64,000 nucleotides of DNA, taken from the sequence record OM870969.1; one strand, written 5' to 3'. Each line of letters opens with the position of its first letter. Position 1 is the first letter of the stretch. Made by a program: the position numbers and the translations under genes. This document shows, in pieces, positions 3,699 to 64,000 of the stretch. The notes beneath the pieces are model-generated. The model was given only the letters and a program-made list of their open reading frames with translations. It searched no databases and was not told the DNA's origin. This DNA comes from Pseudomonas phage vB_Paer_PsCh.

Positions 3699-5561
3699 AT
3701 GTCCAAAATGACCGTGGCCCAAATTGCGGCTATGCACGGTATCGATTTGTATTCTGACCACAAGACCGCTTGTCCCCAATGCCGGAAGAAAGGCGCGGAC
3801 AACAGCGGAGACAACCTGAAGGTTTATGGGACGGATCGTAATACCGGGGAACACAAAGGTGCCTATTGTTGGGCGTGTGGGTACACCTTGCTCTCTGAAG
3901 AGCAGGAAAGAGACGCCCGGGGAGAAGACGAAGAGGAGTGGAATTTCGTGGGAACTGAATTTAACGCAGAGATCAACGCTCAAATTAAAGAGCAGTGCTC
4001 GTATGATCCGCGTGGTTATCGTGGCCTGTCCAAGGAAACTTGCCAGTATTTCGGAGTGCTACATGGTTTCGACCCGGAGACTGGCGAGATTGCAACTCAG
4101 CTATATCCTACTACTACTAATTACGAACTCACTGGTTACAAACAGCGGATCATGCCGAAGAACTTCTCTGAGCCTATCGGAGAGACAGGTAAGGATTGCG
4201 AGCTTTTTGGTCAGTTCCGGTTCAAGAATAGCAACAGCAAGAAGGTGCTTATTGTAGGCGGTGAGGTTGACCAGCTATCAGCATTCCAGATGCTCAAGGA
4301 GTATGACGACCGGCGAGCAGGCGGTAAGAGTGATTATGAACCGACTCCAGTGGTCAGCCCTACTATCGGTGAGAGTGGGGCATGGAAGCAGCTACAGGCT
4401 CAGTATGAGTGGCTAGACCGGTTCGAGCAAATCATTCTCTGTTTCGACAGCGATGACGCAGGACGAGAGGCAGCAGACAAGGCCGCCGATAAGCTTCCGA
4501 AGGGCAAGGTGTTCATGATGGAAATGAACCGTAAAGACCCTAACGAGTATTTGAAAGCTGGGCGTCAATCGGAGTTTGTCAGTGCATTCTATCGAGCCCG
4601 TACATGGACCCCTAGCGGTATTGTAGGGTCTGATGCACTCGACGCTCGAATGTATGAAGCTGTTCAGGTTGAGAAGATTCCTCTGCCACCGTTCGCTAAG
4701 AAGCTCCAGAAGGCTATGGCGGGAGGCATCCCTTTGGGCCGGATTGTGAATATCGGCGCTGCATCGGGAATGGGTAAATCTACTGTAGTGGACGAGTTCA
4801 CTCTGTTCTGGATTTATAACTCGCCTCATATGCCGGGTACTGTGACTCTGGAATCGGACTGCGGGGAATACGCAATCAAGCTGCTGAGCCGGAAGGTAGG
4901 TGAGAAGGCAGATTTGTACGAGACTGTTGAAGAGAAAGTGGCGTTCCTTGATCGGCATCGTGATGCTCGCTACGACTTGTGGCACAAAGAAGATGGGAGT
5001 CCTCGCTTCTATCTGATCGATGACCGAGACGGAAGCCTAGCAGCCCTCAAGGCTCAAATCGAGCAACTGATTATTCAGTTTGAGTGCCGTGTTATTATTC
5101 TGGACCCGCTTCAGGATATTCTGGACGGATTGAGCAACGAAGAGCAGTCGGTATTCATGCGCTGGCAAAAGGGTATGACCAAGAGCCACCGAGTGACGTT
5201 CATCAACATCAACCACGTCCGTAAGAGTGGTGGTGGTCAGAAGGCTAACTCGGCAGGTGCTGAACTGTACGAAGAAGATTTCCAAGGGTCTTCGTCCATC
5301 TTCAAATCTGGTGCAGCTAACATCCTGATGTGGCGGAACAAGGACGCGGAGAACGAGTTCGAAAAGAACCTGATTAACGTGAAGCTCTCTAAGTGCCGAT
5401 GGACTGGCCGCACTGGAATGATGGGCAATTGGTACTACGACGTTGAGACTCATACGATCTGGGACTTGGACGACTATCTGGACCGATATCCTGACAAGCG
5501 CCGTGAGTATGAGGCTTGGATGGCTCAGAAGGAAGAGGAAGGCCGAGACACGGAATACTAA
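3699..5561 (+). CDS. DNA primase/helicase (zinc-finger-TOPRIM-DnaB-like)
   Basis: N-terminal CPQCRKKG...CWACG zinc finger, central TOPRIM-like acidic region, C-terminal Walker A GAASGMGKST and DnaB-like helicase motifs. Confidence 0.85.
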   Translation: MSKMTVAQIAAMHGIDLYSDHKTACPQCRKKGADNSGDNLKVYGTDRNTGEHKGAYCWACGYTLLSEEQERDARGEDEEEWNFVGTEFNAEINAQIKEQCSYDPRGYRGLSKETCQYFGVLHGFDPETGEIATQLYPTTTNYELTGYKQRIMPKNFSEPIGETGKDCELFGQFRFKNSNSKKVLIVGGEVDQLSAFQMLKEYDDRRAGGKSDYEPTPVVSPTIGESGAWKQLQAQYEWLDRFEQIILCFDSDDAGREAADKAADKLPKGKVFMMEMNRKDPNEYLKAGRQSEFVSAFYRARTWTPSGIVGSDALDARMYEAVQVEKIPLPPFAKKLQKAMAGGIPLGRIVNIGAASGMGKSTVVDEFTLFWIYNSPHMPGTVTLESDCGEYAIKLLSRKVGEKADLYETVEEKVAFLDRHRDARYDLWHKEDGSPRFYLIDDRDGSLAALKAQIEQLIIQFECRVIILDPLQDILDGLSNEEQSVFMRWQKGMTKSHRVTFININHVRKSGGGQKANSAGAELYEEDFQGSSSIFKSGAANILMWRNKDAENEFEKNLINVKLSKCRWTGRTGMMGNWYYDVETHTIWDLDDYLDRYPDKRREYEAWMAQKEEEGRDTEY

Positions 5562-38035: not shown

Positions 38036-38059
38036 AGCCCGCCTTGTGCGGGCTTTGTT
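38036..38059 (+). terminator. rho-independent terminator ending the early array
   Basis: AGCCCGCCTTGTGCGGGCT hairpin followed by TTGTT. Confidence 0.55.
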
Positions 38060-38108
38060 CTATCTGCGAAAGCGACAGCTTTCAAGTGTAATTAACATGT
38101 AATGTTGT

Positions 38109-38221
38109 AACATTCTGTAGAGGTAACACCAGCATGACAAGATAGACCACTTGTAACGTTAACGTTACATGTATAACAGCATGACAGCGGAAGCTGTATG
38201 TTCACATTCTGTATAGATAAC
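38109..38221. repeat. direct repeats ACATTCTGTA(G/T)AG(G/A)TAAC x2 and CAGCATGACA x2 flanking the 16-bp perfect palindrome GTAACGTTAACGTTAC (38153-38168)
   Basis: Read directly from the AT-rich non-coding strand-switch region. Confidence 0.55.
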
Positions 38222-38295
38222 CCTATCAAATAACCCCACAATAACCTACCTAAAACCTACCGGTTTAAAGCGGCCTGATAGGCCGTAGATGAAGC

Positions 38296-38309
38296 GATAG
38301 CTTCGCTAT
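38296..38309. promoter_or_regulatory. GATAGC-N3-GCTAT palindromic site 1
   Basis: CGATAGCTTCGCTATG. Confidence 0.45.
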
Positions 38310-38569
38310 GTTAGTCTGCACCGTCAAGGCGAAAGCCTTACAGCATGAGGCTTGTAGGAGGTTTTAGAGGCATATGCGATTAGCATAGGATGTTGGTTGT
38401 TTTAGGTAGATTTTGGGTATAACCCCTTTCCGCGCTACCATTGTCGGTTGTGATGTTAAGCGACAGCTTACATCCGCTCTCATTTTGCAATGAGAATTGC
38501 GTACAGTTCATCATGCGCCTCAGAAGTGACTTCACTTTGCATGCGGAAGCATGCTATAGTATACCCTGT

Positions 38570-38584
38570 GATAGCTCCGCTATC
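38570..38584. promoter_or_regulatory. GATAGC-N3-GCTATC palindromic site 2
   Basis: TGATAGCTCCGCTATCC. Confidence 0.5.
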
Positions 38585-38743
38585 CCGTTTTGCATGGCAC
38601 ACGAATTGCATAAGCATGACAAGGGTAACCCTCGAAAGCGGAGCTTTCAAAGTGTGGGCTTTCCCTTTATTATAATTGCGACTCAATTTCGCGACACCAG
38701 AAAACTTGACTCAAGCCCAGTAAATACGTTAGACTAAAAGATG

Positions 38744-38759
38744 GATAGCTGCCGCTATC
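38744..38759. promoter_or_regulatory. GATAGC-N4-GCTATC palindromic site 3, 30 nt upstream of the homing-endonuclease start
   Basis: GGATAGCTGCCGCTATCA. Confidence 0.5.
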
Positions 38760-38789
38760 AATAGATCAAAATTCACACAAGGAGACCCA

Positions 38790-39443
38790 ATGACAAGCAA
38801 CATTCATGCCAATAATGCCCGCTCGCCTATCGGCGAAGAAATGCACATCCATTACGCCAAAGGCGTATTCCATGCCATGCGACAGCGATGCAATCCCAAA
38901 GACCGAATCTATACCGGGGCTTCGCTCTGCGAAGAGTGGTCTAAGCCTAGAGCCGCCGGATTCGAATCGTTCTATGAATGGGCGGTCTATGAGGCTGGTT
39001 ACTCAGACGGCTACCAACTGGACAAGGACATTCTATTCCCGGGAAACAATTTGTATGCTCCGCATACGTGTGCGTTCATTCCGCAGTACATGAACAAACT
39101 CTTCACAAACTGCGGTAGCACTAAGCGAGTCAATGCAAAACCCAAGCCAGCTAGGACACTCCCGCTAGGCGTGCAGATAAACTACTACAGAAAGAACGGT
39201 AACCCATCCTACACTTCACAATGCCGATCACTAGGTAAACAGGCAACACTAGGTTCGTTCCGAACCGCAATGGAGGCACACGTTGCTTGGCAACATGCCA
39301 AGATAGCAGCCATCCATGAATGTATCGATCTCTATCAGATGGAAGACGTTCACAGTGTGGATATCATCCAAGCCTTGCTTGGAAGGGTAGACCAATTGTG
39401 GAAGGATATTGATGCGGGCAGGGAGACCATTTTGTTGCAGTAG
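38790..39443 (+). CDS. HNH (HNH_3-type) homing endonuclease with C-terminal AP2 DNA-binding domain
   Basis: N-terminal FHAMRQRCNPKDRIYTG...CEEW...FESF...GYQLDKDILFPGNNLYAPHTCAFIPQYMN (HNH_3 pattern). C-terminal GVQINYYRKNGNPSYTSQCRSLGKQATLGSFRTAMEAHVAW (AP2-like). RBS AAGGAGACCCA. Only plus-strand gene in the 2-kb switch region. Confidence 0.6.
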   Translation: MTSNIHANNARSPIGEEMHIHYAKGVFHAMRQRCNPKDRIYTGASLCEEWSKPRAAGFESFYEWAVYEAGYSDGYQLDKDILFPGNNLYAPHTCAFIPQYMNKLFTNCGSTKRVNAKPKPARTLPLGVQINYYRKNGNPSYTSQCRSLGKQATLGSFRTAMEAHVAWQHAKIAAIHECIDLYQMEDVHSVDIIQALLGRVDQLWKDIDAGRETILLQ

Positions 39444-39516
39444 CATCTCGCCTAGCGTCTCGACGCAGTAGTCTCCCATGGGCCAGCGGCTACCCCTCTT
39501 AGAGTGCGAGTAATCC

Positions 39517-39531
39517 GATAGCGAAGCTATC
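39517..39531. promoter_or_regulatory. GATAGC-N3-GCTATC palindromic site 4, downstream of the homing endonuclease
   Basis: CGATAGCGAAGCTATCA. Confidence 0.5.
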
Positions 39532-39645
39532 AAATGTATATGCATATTCCATGCCAACATGTGGAAAGATTTTACCCGGCAGGGCGGGAGTCCGTTGGCA
39601 TTAGTTTTGCATAGCTTAGCTGTCGCTAAGAAGGAAAGACCACGG

Positions 39646-39775
39646 CCACCCATTATTTTGGGATTACGTGAGGTTAGGTATGCCTAGTGGGTTCGTGGTT
39701 AAGTAGCTCGGAAATAAATCCATAACTGGCAGAAGGCGAACCAGCAGAGGGCAGGCCCGCTCCCTCCATTATTTT
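39646..39775. repeat. direct repeat CC(A/T)CCCATTATTTT x2 (39646-39659 and 39761-39775)
   Basis: GGCCACCCATTATTTTGGG and CCGCTCCCTCCATTATTTTCCC. Confidence 0.4.
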
Positions 39776-40143
39776 CCCAGCAGTAGAGGAGACACACTCT
39801 ACAAACGTATCACTCTCTTCGGCGGGGGGTTTAGGATTCTAATATACCTTTAGCGGCTAAATGCCATCATTGCTTATTTCCTATTTTCGTTCTATAATCC
39901 TTATAGGATGTGCTTATTCTTCATTATAGCTGGATAAGCGATGGTTGTATAGATTCACCACAAATAGAAGGAATATAGAATGGAAGATAATATTCAAGCT
40001 CCGCTTGCAGCTAGTGCAGATGGCAAATTCGCAACTGTATACGAAGCTATTGTCGCACTCGGAGTAGAAGGGGCTGCCGCTGTGTACAGGGTAGGTGTAG
40101 GGAATAGATTGACAACAGCTAGACCATAAGCGTGGTAAAGAGA

Positions 40144-40179
40144 AGCCCCGGGCAGCGAAAGCTGATCCCGGGGCTTTTT
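40144..40179. terminator. bidirectional rho-independent terminator at the convergence point
   Basis: GCCCCGGGCAGCGAAAGCTGATCCCGGGGC hairpin with TTTTTT on the plus strand and TTCTCTTT on the minus strand. Confidence 0.6.
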
Positions 40180-40192
40180 TATTGCCTTGAGT

Positions 40193-40459
40193 TTATGTAT
40201 GAAGAGATTCCAGTTGTCTCTGCTCTTCCATATACTCCCTAGTAGCGTAGTTCATCATGAGGTTGCAATACTCTTCGTTTATCTGGTCCATGTATTGCAA
40301 CACTTTCTCCATGCTCTGGCACGGACTGAATCCGTTATGACGGAGAATCTTGTTTAGATTTTCACTTCCCCAGAAGTCTCTGGCCCAAGCCTCCAAAGCT
40401 ACTGCGTAGAGGCTTTTGATGCACCCGATAGGGGCTGGATACCAATATTGCTCAGACAT
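40193..40459 (-). CDS. hypothetical protein (88 aa)
   Basis: ORF; ATGA-type coupling with the upstream gene. Confidence 0.45.
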   Translation of the reverse strand: MSEQYWYPAPIGCIKSLYAVALEAWARDFWGSENLNKILRHNGFSPCQSMEKVLQYMDQINEEYCNLMMNYATREYMEEQRQLESLHT

Positions 40460-61427: not shown

Positions 61428-61501
61428 TGCCGCTTCGTTTAATGGTAGGACGCCAGACTTTGAATCTGGAGATGATGGTTCGATCCCATCAGCGGCTGCC
61501 A
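61428..61501 (+). tRNA. tRNA-Gln (anticodon TTG)
   Basis: Cloverleaf: anticodon arm CCAGA-CTTTGAA-TCTGG; T-arm GATGG-TTCGATC-CCATC; encoded CCA; U1:U72 mismatch. Confidence 0.6.
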
Positions 61502-61582
61502 AATGTAGTAAAAGAACATTCACCCGACAAGGAATGTGTCTCGCTCAGAGGACAGCGAGTAATAAGTGTCCTCCAGAATTAA

Positions 61583-61659
61583 GGGTCGGTGAGCGTAATT
61601 GGCAACCTACTGGATTCCAAATCCTCGTATTCTCTGTTCGAATCGGAGTCGGCCCGCCA
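61583..61659 (+). tRNA. tRNA-like element, anticodon arm not resolvable (possible pseudo-tRNA)
   Basis: Good acceptor (GGGTCGG/TCGGCCC), T-arm CTCTG-TTCGAAT-CGGAG and encoded CCA, but no clean anticodon stem by eye. Confidence 0.35.
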
Positions 61660-61667
61660 AATTAGTG

Positions 61668-61696
61668 TTGACAGGAGAGAAGGTCTCCTGTATAGT
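61668..61696 (+). promoter_or_regulatory. sigma70 promoter (TTGACA-17-TATAGT) with inverted repeat in spacer
   Basis: GTTGACAGGAGAGAAGGTCTCCTGTATAGT. Confidence 0.5.
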
Positions 61697-61706
61697 GACG
61701 CCAATT

Positions 61707-61781
61707 GCTCGTATAGTGTAACGGATGCACAACGGTCTTCTAAGCCGTAAGGTCTAGGTTCGAATCCTAGTATGAGCGCCA
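61707..61781 (+). tRNA. tRNA-Arg (anticodon TCT)
   Basis: Acceptor GCTCGTA/TATGAGC; anticodon arm ACGGT-CTTCTAA-GCCGT; T-arm CTAGG-TTCGAAT-CCTAG; CCA. Confidence 0.65.
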
Positions 61782-61788
61782 AATTAGA

Positions 61789-61864
61789 TGGACGGAAGCT
61801 AAAGTGGATAGGCATCGGGCTTTTAACCCGACTATAGTGAGTTCGAGTCTCACCCGTTCAACCA
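61789..61864 (+). tRNA. tRNA-Lys (anticodon TTT)
   Basis: Anticodon arm TCGGG-CTTTTAA-CCCGA; T-arm GTGAG-TTCGAGT-CTCAC; CCA. Confidence 0.65.
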
Positions 61865-61869
61865 ATTTT

Positions 61870-61957
61870 AGTGAGTAAATCAGATAGGTTCTGAGGCTCC
61901 CTGCTAAGGAGTACGTCTGCTAACGCGGATGTGGATCGAGACCACTGCTCACTGCCA
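61870..61957 (+). tRNA. tRNA-Ser (anticodon GCT), type II long variable arm
   Basis: 88 nt. Anticodon arm GCTCC-CTGCTAA-GGAGT; acceptor AGTGAGT/GCTCACT; CCA. Confidence 0.55.
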
Positions 61958-61976
61958 AAATAAGTGATTTTAAGTG

Positions 61977-62005
61977 TTGACAAACTGAATTTTTCATGTT
62001 TTAAT
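61977..62005 (+). promoter_or_regulatory. sigma70 promoter (TTGACA-17-TTTAAT)
   Basis: GTGTTGACAAACTGAATTTTTCATGTTTTAAT. Confidence 0.45.
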
Positions 62006-62040
62006 ACACTTATCAGATCAAGAAATACTTAGCGAGTAGC

Positions 62041-62120
62041 CCTGAGTAGGTCGGGAACTAGTCTAGAAAACTAGGCCACTGTGATGAACGGTGAGGGTTC
62101 AACTCCTTTACTCGCTGCCA
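62041..62120 (+). tRNA. type II tRNA (Ser-like; anticodon loop CTAGAAA parses as AGA; uncertain)
   Basis: Acceptor AGCGAGT/ACTCGCT, 3-bp D stem CCC/GGG, anticodon stem CTAGT/ACTAG, T-loop TTCAACT, CCA. A34 would be unusual. Confidence 0.4.
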
Positions 62121-62126
62121 AATTTT

Positions 62127-62211
62127 GGCCCTGTGGTGGAATTGGTATACACATCAGTCTTAGAAACTGACGCCGAGAGGATTGAGGGTTCAAGTCCCTC
62201 CGGGGCCACCA
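62127..62211 (+). tRNA. tRNA-Leu (anticodon TAG), type II
   Basis: Acceptor GGCCCTG/CGGGGCC; anticodon arm TCAGT-CTTAGAA-ACTGA; T-arm AGGGTTCAAGTCCCT; CCA. Confidence 0.65.
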
Positions 62212-62220
62212 AATTAAGAA

Positions 62221-62297
62221 TCTCTTTTGCTATTTGGTAAGGGTTCGAGTCCCTTCCCGGCTGCTATGGTCGGTCTACGGTGGCCAAATAGTGAGAG
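62221..62297 (+). ncRNA. structured RNA candidate: ~15-bp outer stem (TCTCTTTTGCTATTTGG / CCAAATAGTGAGAGA) enclosing an orphan T-arm-like hairpin AAGGGTTCGAGTCCCTT
   Basis: Inverted repeat read directly from the sequence. No acceptor, D or anticodon arms, so not a tRNA. Confidence 0.4.
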
Positions 62298-62368
62298 AGC
62301 TAGGGGACATGACGAAGGTAGCGCTGCTTTCCGACCTCCCCGGCGCTATAAAAGTTATCATGAAGGGG

Positions 62369-62396
62369 TTGACAAACAAGAAATTCATGATAATAT
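62369..62396 (+). promoter_or_regulatory. sigma70 promoter (TTGACA-16-TAATAT)
   Basis: GGTTGACAAACAAGAAATTCATGATAATAT. Confidence 0.5.
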
Positions 62397-62421
62397 AGGT
62401 ACATAGAGTAACAAACAATAC

Positions 62422-62497
62422 GGCCAGATAGCTCAATTGGTAGAGCCCCCGACCGATAATCGGGTGGTTGAAGGTTCAAGTCCTTCTCTGGCCACCA
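62422..62497 (+). tRNA. tRNA-Ile (anticodon GAT)
   Basis: Acceptor GGCCAGA/TCTGGCC; D-arm GCTCAATTGGTAGAGC; anticodon arm CCCGA-CCGATAA-TCGGG; CCA. Confidence 0.75.
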
Positions 62498-62506
62498 AAA
62501 TTTATA

Positions 62507-62585
62507 GGCCCATTAGCTCAGTCTGGACTAGAGCAAGCCCCTGTCTAGGGCAAGGTCGCCGGTTCGAATCCGGCATGGGTCGCCA
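62507..62585 (+). tRNA. tRNA-Asp (anticodon GTC)
   Basis: Anticodon loop CTGTCTA; T-arm GCCGG-TTCGAAT-CCGGC; CCA; long D-loop. Confidence 0.55.
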
Positions 62586-62589
62586 ACAA

Positions 62590-62676
62590 GGTCGTTGTAG
62601 AGATAGATGGCTACTATCATCCGGCTGTAACCCGGACGCCATAGGCTAGAGGTTCAATTCCTTCCTTCGACCACCA
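62590..62676 (+). tRNA. tRNA-Tyr (anticodon GTA), type II; acceptor-stem base imperfect in my parse
   Basis: Anticodon arm TCCGG-CTGTAAC-CCGGA; long variable arm; TTCAATT T-loop; CCA. Confidence 0.45.
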
Positions 62677-62679
62677 AAT

Positions 62680-62760
62680 AGCGAGAGCGTTAAGACTGGC
62701 TGGCGCTGTCCCTCGGCTCATAACCGAATACAAGTGGTTCGATTCCACCTCTCGCTTCCA
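62680..62760 (+). tRNA. tRNA-Met/Ile2-like (anticodon CAT)
   Basis: Perfect acceptor AGCGAGA/TCTCGCT; anticodon loop CTCATAA; T-arm GTGG-TTCGATT-CCAC; CCA. 81 nt with atypical D-arm. Confidence 0.45.
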
Positions 62761-62994
62761 AATTGCACTCCGAGGAACCCTAAGTGGTGGGTTCAGTGTC
62801 GCTACCTATCTCGGTAAGGGGAAGCGCCTAAGCTGGCACGGGTAATTGAGTAGCTGTGATAAGCTACTGGCAGCCAGTATAAATCGTCCGGCTCGGGCCC
62901 GTTATAGCTCCTAGATTTGAATTAGATGCTGTAAGCCATAGGAGGTGATCCAGTATCTCCCGGAGGGGCCCGGGTTAACAACCTCATGAATTTA

Positions 62995-63071
62995 GCCCGC
63001 GTTGGCCGAGAGGTTTAGGCGGCGGATTGCAAATCCGTCTCACATCGGTTCAAATCCGATACGCGGCTCCA
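62995..63071 (+). tRNA. tRNA-like (anticodon loop TTGCAAA = GCA, Cys?), acceptor pairing imperfect
   Basis: T-arm ATCGG-TTCAAAT-CCGAT; CCA; anticodon arm GCGGA-TTGCAAA-TCCGT. Confidence 0.35.
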
Positions 63072-63081
63072 AGGTTTATAT

Positions 63082-63157
63082 TGGGATGTAGCTCAGTTGG
63101 CAGAGCAGGGAGCTGTTAACTCTCAGGTCGCAGGTTCGAGCCCTGCCGTCCCAGCCA
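63082..63157 (+). tRNA. tRNA-Asn (anticodon GTT)
   Basis: Acceptor TGGGATG/CGTCCCA; D-arm GCTCAGTTGGCAGAGC; anticodon arm GGGAG-CTGTTAA-CTCTC; T-arm GCAGG-TTCGAGC-CCTGC; CCA. Confidence 0.75.
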
Positions 63158-63220
63158 ATTTCCAAAAGAGACTCTTCGCTTCAGAAGCAGAGTCGAACGC
63201 CCGATACGGGCCTTATTCAT

Positions 63221-63298
63221 CTCCTCGTAGCTCAGTCTGGTTAGAGTGTCGGATTTGGAATCCGAAGGTCGAAGGTTCAAATCCTTCCGGGGTGACCA
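63221..63298 (+). tRNA. tRNA-Pro (anticodon TGG)
   Basis: Anticodon arm TCGGA-TTTGGAA-TCCGA; T-arm GAAGG-TTCAAAT-CCTTC; CCA. Confidence 0.6.
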
Positions 63299-63304
63299 AT
63301 CAAA

Positions 63305-63380
63305 GCGGGTATAGCTCAGTTGGTAGAGCGTCTGCCTTCCAAGCAGTTCGTCGTCGGTTCGAGTCCGTCTATCCGCTCCA
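63305..63380 (+). tRNA. tRNA-Gly (anticodon TCC)
   Basis: Acceptor GCGGGTA/TATCCGC; D-arm GCTCAGTTGGTAGAGC; anticodon loop CTTCCAA; CCA. Confidence 0.65.
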
Positions 63381-63386
63381 AACAAA

Positions 63387-63463
63387 GGGACTGTAGCTCA
63401 GAAGGTTAGAGCGGTGGATTGAAATCCCACAGGTCGGGCGTTCGATTCGCCCCGGTCCCACCA
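63387..63463 (+). tRNA. tRNA-Phe (anticodon GAA)
   Basis: Acceptor GGGACTG/CGGTCCC; anticodon loop TTGAAAT; T-arm GGGCG-TTCGATT-CGCCC; CCA. Confidence 0.65.
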
Positions 63464-63469
63464 AATAAA

Positions 63470-63545
63470 GCAGTTATAGATTAATTGGTTAAATCGCCAG
63501 ACTTTCAATCTGGTGTTCCGGGTTCGATCCCCGGTAACTGCTCCA
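63470..63545 (+). tRNA. tRNA-Glu (anticodon TTC)
   Basis: Perfect acceptor GCAGTTA/TAACTGC; anticodon arm CCAGA-CTTTCAA-TCTGG; T-arm CCGGG-TTCGATC-CCCGG; CCA. Confidence 0.65.
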
Positions 63546-63611
63546 ATCAAGTCCAAGCCGGAACATTCCTCCGTATGTGCTTTCAGCCGGCTTGGCATTA
63601 TTCGTGTGGAG

Positions 63612-63678
63612 ATTGTGTAGCCCGGATGCTGCCTTTCGGTTGTGACCCGATTGTTGGGGTTCGAGTCCCCGCCTCCAA
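63612..63678 (+). tRNA. tRNA-like element (T-arm GGGG-TTCGAGT-CCCC, CCA end), body not resolvable
   Basis: Acceptor TGGAGAT/GCCTCCA partly pairs. Possibly a degenerate tRNA. Confidence 0.25.
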
Positions 63679-64000
63679 CCAATGTCGTGCAATGGTATAT
63701 CGCGTTGACGCTTTTAGGCTCTCTGGATCGTAAGCCAGTAAAGCGAGAATAGCGGGCTCTCGCAGCAGAGCGATAGGTGGTTCGATTCCACAACATGACA
63801 CTCTTTCCTCCTCGCCTGTGCTGAACGGTTTCCTCCTCCTTTCCCGTCTCACAGGCTCTATTCCCTGCCCTTTAAGCATTTATGGTGATGCACCGGCTTT
63901 GTAACCCGGCGAATTCTGTTCAAGTCAGGAATGGGGCACCAATTCACTATCAAAGAACCCGCAAGCTCCCGATAGGGTTCACACTCTATAAGGTTGTAGC

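Follow-up and report, generated by a model that had tools for sequence, protein, structure and literature searches.

G..A-looped mini-hairpins clustered at the terminal repeat of Pseudomonas phage vB_Paer_PsCh and its relatives

Background

Phages of the PaP1 and PAK_P types are leading therapeutic candidates against Pseudomonas aeruginosa, and what is at issue here is how they handle the ends of their linear genomes: protection, circularisation, end replication and the packaging cut. The terminal repeats of PaP1-like phages have been published, with lengths of 1165 to 1190 base pairs, or bp (PMC3652863, PMC5175280, PMC4773840, PMC12846349). We analysed a stretch of 64,000 nucleotides (nt) of Pseudomonas phage vB_Paer_PsCh (sequence record OM870969.1), called the window below, and in it a group of short inverted repeats around positions 38060 to 40180, among them four dyads of the form GATAGC-N3/4-GCTATC. 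The described repeats of PaP1 (1190 bp), C11 (1173 bp), K8 (1188 bp) and Adele (1165 bp) are homologous to this part of the window, with 89-98% identity, and agree with it in their position between rightward early genes and leftward genes, in their boundary sequences, and in the gene that they contain, gp157 in PaP1; the window copy is collapsed to one. Only the existence and the length of these repeats are described in the papers cited here, and two PaP1 papers state that complicated secondary structures are absent. A link between the hairpins and the hard-to-sequence character of PaP1 was considered and dropped: the paper in question blames base modification for the difficulty and does not invoke secondary structure.

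Non-coding zones rich in repeats and inverted repeats, implicated in end processing, lie at or beside the terminal repeat in other phages: the concatemer-junction hairpin and pac elements of T7, and the injection-stop region of T5. Their sequences, repeat types and sizes differ from those of the window, and we know of no family of GNA mini-hairpins described at T7 or T5 ends. Parvoviruses and poxviruses have flip/flop termini, in which long hairpins, covalently closed or terminal, prime replication. Mini-hairpin DNA is a small structure reportedly worked out by Hirao and colleagues. Molecules of the type d(GCGNAGC) or d(GCGNNAGC) combine extreme stability with nuclease resistance and poor binding of single-stranded DNA-binding protein (SSB); their known natural sites are the G4 complementary-strand origin, RSF1010 ssiA and the promoters of the N4 virion RNA polymerase (PMC13037366).

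We propose that the dyads and their relatives are cis-acting DNA hairpins of the genome terminus that act when the repeat is single-stranded, a reading to which we assign a probability of roughly 0.55. An original prediction on this DNA had suggested operators or homing footprints of the AP2/HNH-like gene located between two of the dyads; on our best reading, neither is their primary role. The terminal repeat itself is already known; the hairpin family, a boundary motif common to two genera, loop flips in the genus Nankokuvirus and a hairpin-bracketed cassette appear to be undescribed, and go unmentioned in PMC3652863, PMC4177049, PMC4309531, PMC4773840, PMC5175280 and PMC12846349.

The terminal repeat in the window

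The window phage is a Pakpunavirus, a PaP1/PAK_P1-like Pseudomonas myovirus. Of the 270 phage records matched by the 4 kilobases (kb) around the dyads, 268 bear the name Pseudomonas phage; the best match is the Pakpunavirus JG005, at 94.8% over the full length. The non-coding segment 38010-38790 (781 bp) matched 120 records, 114 over at least 80% of its length. Several of the matched records carry a 'repeat_region' or 'Direct Terminal Repeat' annotation under the match, and the repeat_region features of C11, Adele, EM, K5/K8 and Ab02 all lie there.

When the annotated repeats of C11 (1173 bp), Adele (1165 bp) and EM (1192 bp) are mapped onto the window and combined with the ends of PaP1, they delimit a direct terminal repeat (DTR) of about 1242 bp at 38459..39700, with boundaries good to about 12 nt on either side. 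Because the annotated or experimentally mapped repeats of these four phages fall at 38459-39700, what the original prediction called a strand-switch region is the already known terminal redundancy of PaP1-like phages, together with its flanks. It is single-copy in the window because the assembly is permuted and collapsed. The early genes run rightward into the DTR and the leftward genes begin at 40193; the convergent transcription and low coding density noticed earlier are borne out. The early region of PAK_P4 comprises gp080-gp124 (PMC5563952).

With a slash at the boundary, the left edge of the repeat reads GATGTTA/AGCGACAGCTTACA at 38459 (GATGTTA/AGCGACAGC in Adele and EM, and two bases later in C11), and the right edge reads GGGTTCGTGGTT/AAGTAGCTCGG at 39700. 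The ends of PaP1 obtained by run-off sequencing are 7-11 nt further left at both edges, about 11 nt at the left one. The boundary sequences GATGTT(A)/AGCGACAGC and GGGTTCGTGGTT/AAGTAGC are found in the window and in its relatives.

The two edges have a short motif in common (38448-38461 and 39693-39703): GATGTT(A)/AG at the left and GTGGTT/AAG at the right, the latter at 39695..39703 on the plus strand. The likeness extends across genera: PAK_P3, of the sister genus Nankokuvirus, has GGATGATC/AAGCC and GGGTCTTGTT/AAAC at record positions 62771 and 63516, to be compared with GTGATGTT(A)/AGCG and GTGGTT/AAGTAGC in the window. The motif is a candidate for a terminase cut or recognition site. In PAK_P1, PAK_P4 and vFB297, a tandem duplication of CCGATTGTGTTAA stands immediately before the left edge.

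Genomes of this type are usually deposited permuted, and their terminus then resembles an odd intergenic gap with spurious small open reading frames (ORFs). In Ps25, pPA-3099-2aT.2 and other deposited genomes, short ORFs of 30-50 amino acids (aa) are annotated on both strands across the hairpin-rich non-coding DNA aligned to 38090-39900; they are most likely over-annotation.

A family of mini-hairpins

Perfect hairpins with stems of at least 5 bp and loops of 3-5 nt number 30 and 18 per kb in the 38-40 kb stretch, against about 4 per kb elsewhere, and those closed by a GC pair nearly all carry the core GCG(N)NAGC there. With stems of at least 4 bp, 15 of the 19 hairpins of the window with this core fall within 38072-40162, on both strands. 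We define the class as hairpins in which a C:G pair closes 3-4 loop nt whose sequence is G..A on one of the two strands, which matches the definition published for mini-hairpin DNA exactly. The segment 38060-40180 contains 16 such hairpins (7.5 per kb), and the other 61.9 kb only 10 (0.16 per kb), an enrichment of about 47-fold at the terminus (Poisson p ~1e-21); 300 dinucleotide-preserving shuffles of the region gave 0.12 class hairpins on average and 2 at most. In the non-coding part, all 14 of the C:G-closed hairpins have G..A or T..C loops, where 12.5% are expected (p 2e-13). The four dyads, which the original prediction had treated as a set of their own, are four of about 16 hairpins of one structural class: they belong to a family of at least 14-16 short, GC-clamped, G..A-looped inverted repeats.

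The core of mini-hairpin DNA, GCGNAGC/GCGNNAGC, is exact in 13 hairpins with stems of at least 5 bp (38068-40007). Both the 3-nt and the 4-nt loop forms occur, and they interconvert between orthologues of the window phage. The known natural examples are single sites, while the window has about 15 hairpins clustered at the genome end of a double-stranded DNA phage, with stems of 5-6 bp and a stability predicted by folding only. Each element folds as the expected hairpin with DNA nearest-neighbour parameters.

Five hairpins, at 38570 (minus strand), 38634 (plus), 39053 (minus), 39517 (plus) and 39995 (minus), have 3-nt loops of the N4 type, the others having 4-nt loops. With stems of 5-6 bp and GGA/GAA triloops, these five share the GCGGAGC/GCGAAGC cores of the N4 virion RNA polymerase promoters (PMC13037366), which have stems of 5-7 bp and likewise lie near a genome end with terminal repeats. 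It would be scarcely credible, however, that they are single-stranded hairpin promoters for a single-subunit phage RNA polymerase: these phages encode no RNA polymerase (PMC10914365), and the largest ORF of the 64-kb window has 904 aa. Most of the hairpins have 4-nt loops, both strands are used, and no downstream initiation context is conserved. The promoter reading is largely refuted; the hairpins of the window may share with N4 the physical principle of a hairpin that survives SSB coating, but they are not members of that system.

An exact GATAGC-N3/4-GCTATC is found three times in the window, against none in 100 shuffles. Three of the four dyads first listed are these exact copies, at 38570-38584, 38744-38759 and 39517-39531; the copy at 38296 is imperfect. 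It reads GATAGCTTCGCTATg, has a true stem of 5 bp (ATAGC/GCTAT), and keeps its mismatch in every one of the 15 relatives. It is an exact inverted copy of 39518-39531, and shares part of its sequence with another hairpin, GAAGC-GATA-GCTTC (38291-38304). The two hairpins, which together span 38291-38310, are mutually exclusive and offset by 6 nt, each strand having its own G..A mini-hairpin, with loop GATA on the plus strand and GAA on the minus strand.

The mini-hairpins do not pass as terminators, defined by a GC-rich stem and a U-tract: only the structures at 38036 (plus strand) and 40146 qualify clearly, with weak minus-strand matches at 38744, 39053 and 39995 and no T-runs at the others. 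A pattern scan of IMG/VR returned only isolate genomes already in GenBank.

Selection on stems and drift of loops

The relatives mentioned above are 15 Pakpunavirus genomes, which we aligned across the region. Variable columns make up 11 of 132 (8%) in the stems, 12 of 38 (32%) in the loops, and 515 of 1101 (47%) in the other non-coding positions; the difference between stems and other non-coding columns has a Fisher p of 6e-20. The comparison shows strong purifying or compensatory selection on the stems while loops and flanks drift. The drift of the loops mostly stays within the G..A rule, with a GACA/GGA indel, GGAA/GAAA/GAGA exchanges, and GGCA/GGAA on the minus strand; changes that break it are few, GGAT and TAGA among them.

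The stem changes are confined to one phage, EM, and all of them keep a hairpin. In EM, CTTAGC-TGTC-GCTAAG has turned into ATTGGC-TACC-GCCAAT, a compensatory change, and CAACG-TTC-CGTTG stands in place of GATAGC-GAA-GCTATC. As judged from these alignments, the preserved thing is the hairpin potential, not the GATAGC word itself. The original prediction had seen in the dyads a non-random, conserved, functional-looking part of a special non-coding cis-acting zone where transcription converges, and that much stands. A rigid dimeric operator fares less well, as the spacer has 3 or 4 nt, orthologues differ by the GACA/GGA indel, and one relative swaps the GATAGC stem for CAACG/CGTTG.

Mini-hairpins can also, to judge from an alignment, be gained or moved: near the position aligned to 39853, PAK_P1 has an insertion with an extra mini-hairpin, GCAAGC-TCC-GCTTGC, whose stem is that of the hairpin at 39995-40007.

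The gene inside the repeat

The repeat contains a gene at 38790..39443 on the plus strand, for a 217-aa protein with an AP2-like domain and a degenerate HNH-like module. The protein has no sequence match in Pfam, NCBIfam or the PDB, and matches PHROG 953, 'HNH endonuclease', at 2.9e-70. Its family of proteins of about 200 aa counts 9626 representatives at 50% clustering (E-value at most 1e-3), with the consensus LDKDIL..GNK.YSP.TC.FVP...N; a sample of 37 members gave no Pfam match. Labels such as 'HNH endonuclease' or homing endonuclease are widespread in the family although the position of the catalytic histidine holds lysine. The window protein and its seven closest homologues have Lys or Arg there (LDKD/LDRN), and among the 37 sampled proteins at least 90% have Lys.

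A first structure model, from 8 sequences, was unusable (pLDDT 54), and the model was rebuilt with the 37 sequences. It predicts, at about residues 125-185, a three-stranded sheet packed on a helix, like solved AP2 domains of the AP2/ERF type. A beta-beta-alpha-like element is present in the model, within a degenerate HNH-like module (LDKD...N) that lacks the catalytic His, and no HNH structure was among the fold-search matches. For the protein named 'HNH-AP2' in the original prediction, the AP2-like DNA-binding fold holds and the nuclease histidine is absent.

The gene is at the same place in 15 of 15 relatives, with alleles of 594-654 bp and 55-97% aa identity. A cassette at about 38760-39500, formed by the gene and its untranslated regions, shows 62-64% nucleotide identity between allele groups, against 87-99% in the flanks, and the invariant dyads 38744 and 39517 sit at its two edges. 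The comparison suggests allele replacement by recombination. As predicted, 30 nt separate the end of the 38744 copy from the ATG at 38790; on the other side of the gene, the distance from the stop at 39443 to the start of the 39517 copy is 74 nt.

If the gene were a mobile HNH homing endonuclease, the dyads could be the footprints of its recognition, cleavage or insertion. The exact bracketing of a divergent cassette by two dyads is in favour of this, as is the membership of the protein in a very large family of which many members are labelled HNH or homing endonuclease. We nevertheless judge it very improbable: no relative offers an empty site, Lys or Arg takes the place of the catalytic His across the family, the fold searches brought up no HNH fold, and hairpins of the class are found well outside the gene as well as in the gene-free termini of Nankokuvirus; nor do footprints predict a stem swap or a variable spacer. 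The original prediction asked whether 38090-39540 is an insertion; by this synteny the gene is not one, and is not 'lone' in that sense. The dyads do bracket the gene, as conserved edges of a fast-turning cassette, with no evidence of an active nuclease.

The sister genus Nankokuvirus

The terminus of PAK_P3 has been reported as untranscribed ('gp113 ... genome terminus', PMC4933390). PhageTerm places its T7-like terminal-repeat termini at about 63 kb, in a region 'devoid of genes and transcription'; in Hi-C data the terminus anchors a DNA loop early in infection, 'pointing to specific factors' (PMC13510664). The record ends, with the repeat_region of Ab03, put the PAK_P3 repeat at 62771-63516.

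This repeat and its upstream flank contain a set of hairpins that is non-homologous to that of the window but analogous: GGCTTC-N3-GAAGCC three times, plus a shorter copy, GCCTC-N3-GAGGC twice, and others. Over the 80 kb scanned, the GGCTTC and GCCTC hairpins are restricted to this place, and six TT(G/A)TGTAAC iterons are likewise found only at the terminus. The density of the hairpin class in PAK_P3 is 4.8 per kb at the terminus, against 0.11 per kb elsewhere. By this comparison, both genera have the hairpin family as a feature of their terminus.

In an alignment of five Nankokuvirus genomes, with hairpins at PAK_P3 record positions 62537-63464, 3 of 128 stem columns vary, one compensatory change from a C:G to a T:A pair being included. 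The loops vary in 12 of 35 columns (34%), against 68 of 854 (8%) at other positions (p 2e-5). Between strains, 6 of the 11 loops are found in both reverse-complement orientations: GTA/TAC, GTC/GAC three times, GACC/GGTC, and TTC/GAA. We take loop inversion between conserved arms as a DNA-level signature of hairpin formation, the only process that explains such flips. Flip/flop termini of parvoviruses and poxviruses likewise come in two orientations with their stems kept; the phage hairpins differ in being internal elements of 13-17 nt, and the Pakpunavirus copies have no flips.

Flipped-loop variants were indeed absent in Pakpunavirus, both at 11 hairpins in the 15 aligned genomes and at three hairpins across about 120 records, which fits, as far as alignments can tell, a strand-specific constraint on the G..A loop. 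An HNH gene is also annotated in a convergent region of Acinetobacter phage Phab24, a relative that DNA-polymerase similarity places further away; we return to it below.

Transcription around the repeat

Phages of the PAK_P3 type have no RNA polymerase gene of their own and rely on host sigma-70-like promoters (PMC10914365). Sites of the form TTGAC-N18-TAnAnT number 10 in the whole window, against 0.45 expected, which fits the host-dependent transcription reported for these phages. On the plus strand, two sigma-70-like matches precede dyads. The first, TTCACT-18-(TGc)TATAGT at 38531..38560, is a putative promoter with a hairpin, GCATGC-GGAA-GCATGC (38539-38554), in its spacer; the second, TTGACT-18-TAGACT at 38706..38735, is an inferred promoter upstream of the gene in the repeat, with a -35 box conserved in relatives. 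They end at 38560 and 38735, 10 and 9 nt ahead of the first letters of the dyads at 38570 and 38744.

In PAK_P4, the counterpart of the gene in the repeat is an early gene (PMC5563952). A non-coding RNA, as envisaged in the original prediction, is possible. An antisense RNA of 1.2 kb, as17, is annotated across the repeat of PAK_P4 from RNA-seq data, with coarse coordinates from about 39800 to about 38570. A predicted minus-strand match facing into the repeat, TATACA-17-TATAAT at 39923..39951, is the probable source of as17.

The hairpins could then act in RNA, as 5' stabilising stem-loops, or as 3' end or processing structures, of the early mRNA, of as17, or of a small RNA from near 38568. The end of as17 near the 38570 dyad speaks for such a role, along with the presence within as17 of all four minus-strand G..A-loop hairpins between 38570 and 39630, the closeness of two dyads to -10-like hexamers, and several loops that are GNRA tetraloops (GAAA, GGAA, GAGA). 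Yet many loops are not GNRA (GACA, GGCA, GATA, GGAT, and the triloops GGA and GAA) and still obey the rule of DNA mini-hairpins. Six hairpins of the class lie upstream of the repeat, past a strong terminator, where no plus-strand promoter-like site or transcript is evident, and the hairpins of Nankokuvirus are in DNA reported as untranscribed, with loops that flip at the DNA level (PMC4933390, PMC13510664). Scans of the region for tRNA, tmRNA and Rfam families, at gathering and E-value thresholds, gave no match except chance ones to the terminator at 40140-40180. An action through RNA is, in our view, improbable.

Duplex sites or single-stranded hairpins

It is natural to ask whether the dyads are instead sites in duplex DNA for a phage protein: the AP2 protein of the repeat, for autoregulation or for organisation of the terminus, a nucleoid-associated-like factor, or the small terminase. 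The repeat indeed has a gene for a protein with an AP2/ERF-like DNA-binding fold, early in PAK_P4 (PMC5563952), two dyads are near the predicted +1 of sigma-70-like promoters, and the loop anchor seen by Hi-C at the PAK_P3 terminus calls for a specific factor (PMC13510664). The invariance of the stems is equally expected of a sequence-specific site in double-stranded DNA, and the recurrence of half-sites, GATAGC four times and GAAAGC twice, hints at recognition of sequence and not of structure alone.

Against duplex sites, all that the hairpins have in common is the GC clamp and the G..A loop, a feature relevant in the folded single strand only, and the outer half-sites differ between hairpins. 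The spacing of 3 or 4 nt, altered by an indel between orthologues, is not that of an operator with fixed spacing, and phage EM changes stem sequences yet keeps the hairpin potential. The protein alleles differ in about 40% of their amino acids, AP2 strands included, while the dyads are identical, and the termini of Nankokuvirus have hairpins with no gene between them. An autoregulatory operator, as first suggested, is further disfavoured by the hairpin class itself, which is not specific to the gene: its members are also found past the gene and, outside the repeat, 400 bp upstream. Taken together, duplex sites, for instance for the AP2-like protein, are possible but the less likely explanation.

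Several other observations weigh, like the stem invariance and the recurring half-sites, against hairpins acting in single-stranded DNA. Folding energies from nearest-neighbour DNA parameters are modest, -3 to -7 kcal/mol; standard parameters are known to under-estimate mini-hairpin DNA structures (PMC13037366). The strand orientation of the G..A loops is 8:8 overall, and the split into 6:2 left of 38560 and 2:6 right of it is not significant; we set this bias aside as support for hairpins forming on 3' tails. Phab24 shows no cluster of G..A hairpins in the 50 kb scanned, its convergent region included, a result of little weight with its own terminus unlocated. Finally, the Pakpunavirus repeat, unlike the Nankokuvirus terminus, is transcribed on both strands, by the early gene and as17, and two dyads begin 9-10 nt downstream of -10-like hexamers: a role in RNA or close to promoters is possible for some copies.

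Single-stranded DNA hairpins remain our preferred reading. The hairpins would fold as DNA structures once the terminal repeat becomes single-stranded, either by end resection and annealing, during circularisation or concatemer formation, or by a T7-like regeneration of the repeat at packaging, or by priming near the ends. Once folded, they would protect the ends, mark them, or give entry points to end-processing enzymes; we propose such roles because published mini-hairpins resist nucleases and bind SSB poorly. A replication-priming role, akin to the 'second origin' of the original prediction, is possible. A 620-aa ORF at 3699-5561 is by annotation a homologue of the primase/helicase gp49 of PAK_P3, and a hairpin motif of the single-strand-initiation type is present.

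A bolder and more tentative conjecture, which may well be wrong, is that clusters of strand-specific mini-hairpins are an unrecognised class of cis-acting terminus elements in the Vandenendeviridae, folding out of the single-stranded repeat and directing end processing. They might serve as SSB-free landing or priming sites, as nuclease stops that limit resection, or as anchors of the DNA loop seen by Hi-C early in PAK_P3 infection; the AP2-like protein of the repeat could be a reader of their structure, if there is one. The hairpins are candidate cis-elements for the anchoring of the PAK_P3 terminus by a 'specific factor'. On our reading, this would be the first natural bulk use of mini-hairpin DNA motifs at the genome ends of a double-stranded DNA phage. 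The terminal repeat, so far described by its length, gains an internal anatomy: boundary motifs common to two genera, about 15 selected mini-hairpins, conserved promoter-like blocks, and a divergent cassette bracketed by two hairpins.

Other features of the terminus

To the left of the repeat, the rightward early-gene block ends in an intrinsic terminator, AGCCCGC-CTTGT-GCGGGCT with a T-rich tail, at 38036..38054 on the plus strand, found by the terminator scan and invariant in the 15 relatives. Mini-hairpins also stand before the DTR. GAAAGC-GACA-GCTTTC, at 38068..38083 (plus strand), includes the first copy of AGCGACAGCT; its loop is GACA or, by an indel, GGA in relatives, and its stem is invariant. 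ACAGC-GGAA-GCTGT, at 38184..38197 (plus), has loop GGAA, GAAA or GAGA in relatives. The overlapping pair at 38291..38310, GAAGC-GATA-GCTTC with its G..A loop on the plus strand and ATAGC-TTC-GCTAT with a GAA loop on the minus strand, is the imperfect first dyad, and is invariant in the 15 relatives. The hairpin scan and the alignment also give AAGGC-GAAA-GCCTT, at 38326..38339 (plus), which contains GCGAAAGC.

This flank includes a repeat zone at 38094..38240, partly deleted in EM and pPA-3099, with two copies each of ACATTCTGTA..TAAC and AGCATGACA, the palindrome TGTAACGTTAACGTTACA, and TGTAAC-type motifs. The repeats reported here in the original prediction are real. Its perfect palindrome of 16 bp is in fact one of 18 bp, TGTAACGTTAACGTTACA at 38152-38169, whose centre differs among relatives (TTAA/TTGA/TCAA). 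The direct repeat ACATTCTGTA..TAAC is present at 38110 and 38204 (80% over 25 nt), and CAGCATGACA is also present twice, AGCATGACA having a third occurrence at 38613.

The mini-hairpin TAAGC-GACA-GCTTA, at 38457..38470 (plus strand), sits on the left boundary of the DTR. Further in are the dyad GATAGC-TCC-GCTATC, at 38570..38584, with a GGA loop on the minus strand, invariant in the 15 relatives and without a flipped loop in about 120 records; GAAAGC-GGA-GCTTTC, at 38634..38648 (plus), a paralogue of the hairpin at 38068; and the dyad GATAGC-TGCC-GCTATC, at 38744..38759, with a GGCA loop on the minus strand, at the left edge of the cassette. The gene itself contains a hairpin, GTATGC-TCC-GCATAC, at 39053-39067 on the minus strand. 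The dyad GATAGC-GAA-GCTATC at the right edge of the cassette, 39517..39531 on the plus strand, contains GCGAAGC and is the one replaced in EM. CTTAGC-TGTC-GCTAAG, at 39615..39630, has a GACA loop on the minus strand, includes a third, inverted copy of AGCGACAGCT, and is 70 nt inside the right boundary.

Two non-coding blocks are almost invariant in the 15 genomes, and more conserved than the gene between them. The first, 38524-38628, of about 100 nt, holds the promoter match with the spacer hairpin. The second, 39533..39614, holds a 10-bp palindrome, ATATGCATAT, and an inverted repeat, ATGCCAAC...GTTGGCAT. These blocks may be a small RNA or protein-binding sites. The motif TTTTGCA(T/A) recurs at 38485, 38588 and 39606.

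To the right of the repeat, a small conserved ORF of 49 aa, phrog_8631, at 39980..40129 on the plus strand, contains the hairpin CAAGC-TCC-GCTTG at 39995-40007. The terminator at the convergence, 40146..40175, is GCCCCGGG...CCCGGGGC, with an inner CAGC-GAAA-GCTG, followed by a T-run.

On the scale of the window, cumulative GC skew peaks at about 38 kb, the terminus, and has its minimum at about 60 kb, beside the tRNA cluster. The switch of sign at the terminus was set aside as a sign of an origin, as gene orientation switches there too. The cluster comprises 14 tRNA genes at 61428-63941 on the plus strand, as expected for PAK_P1-like phages.

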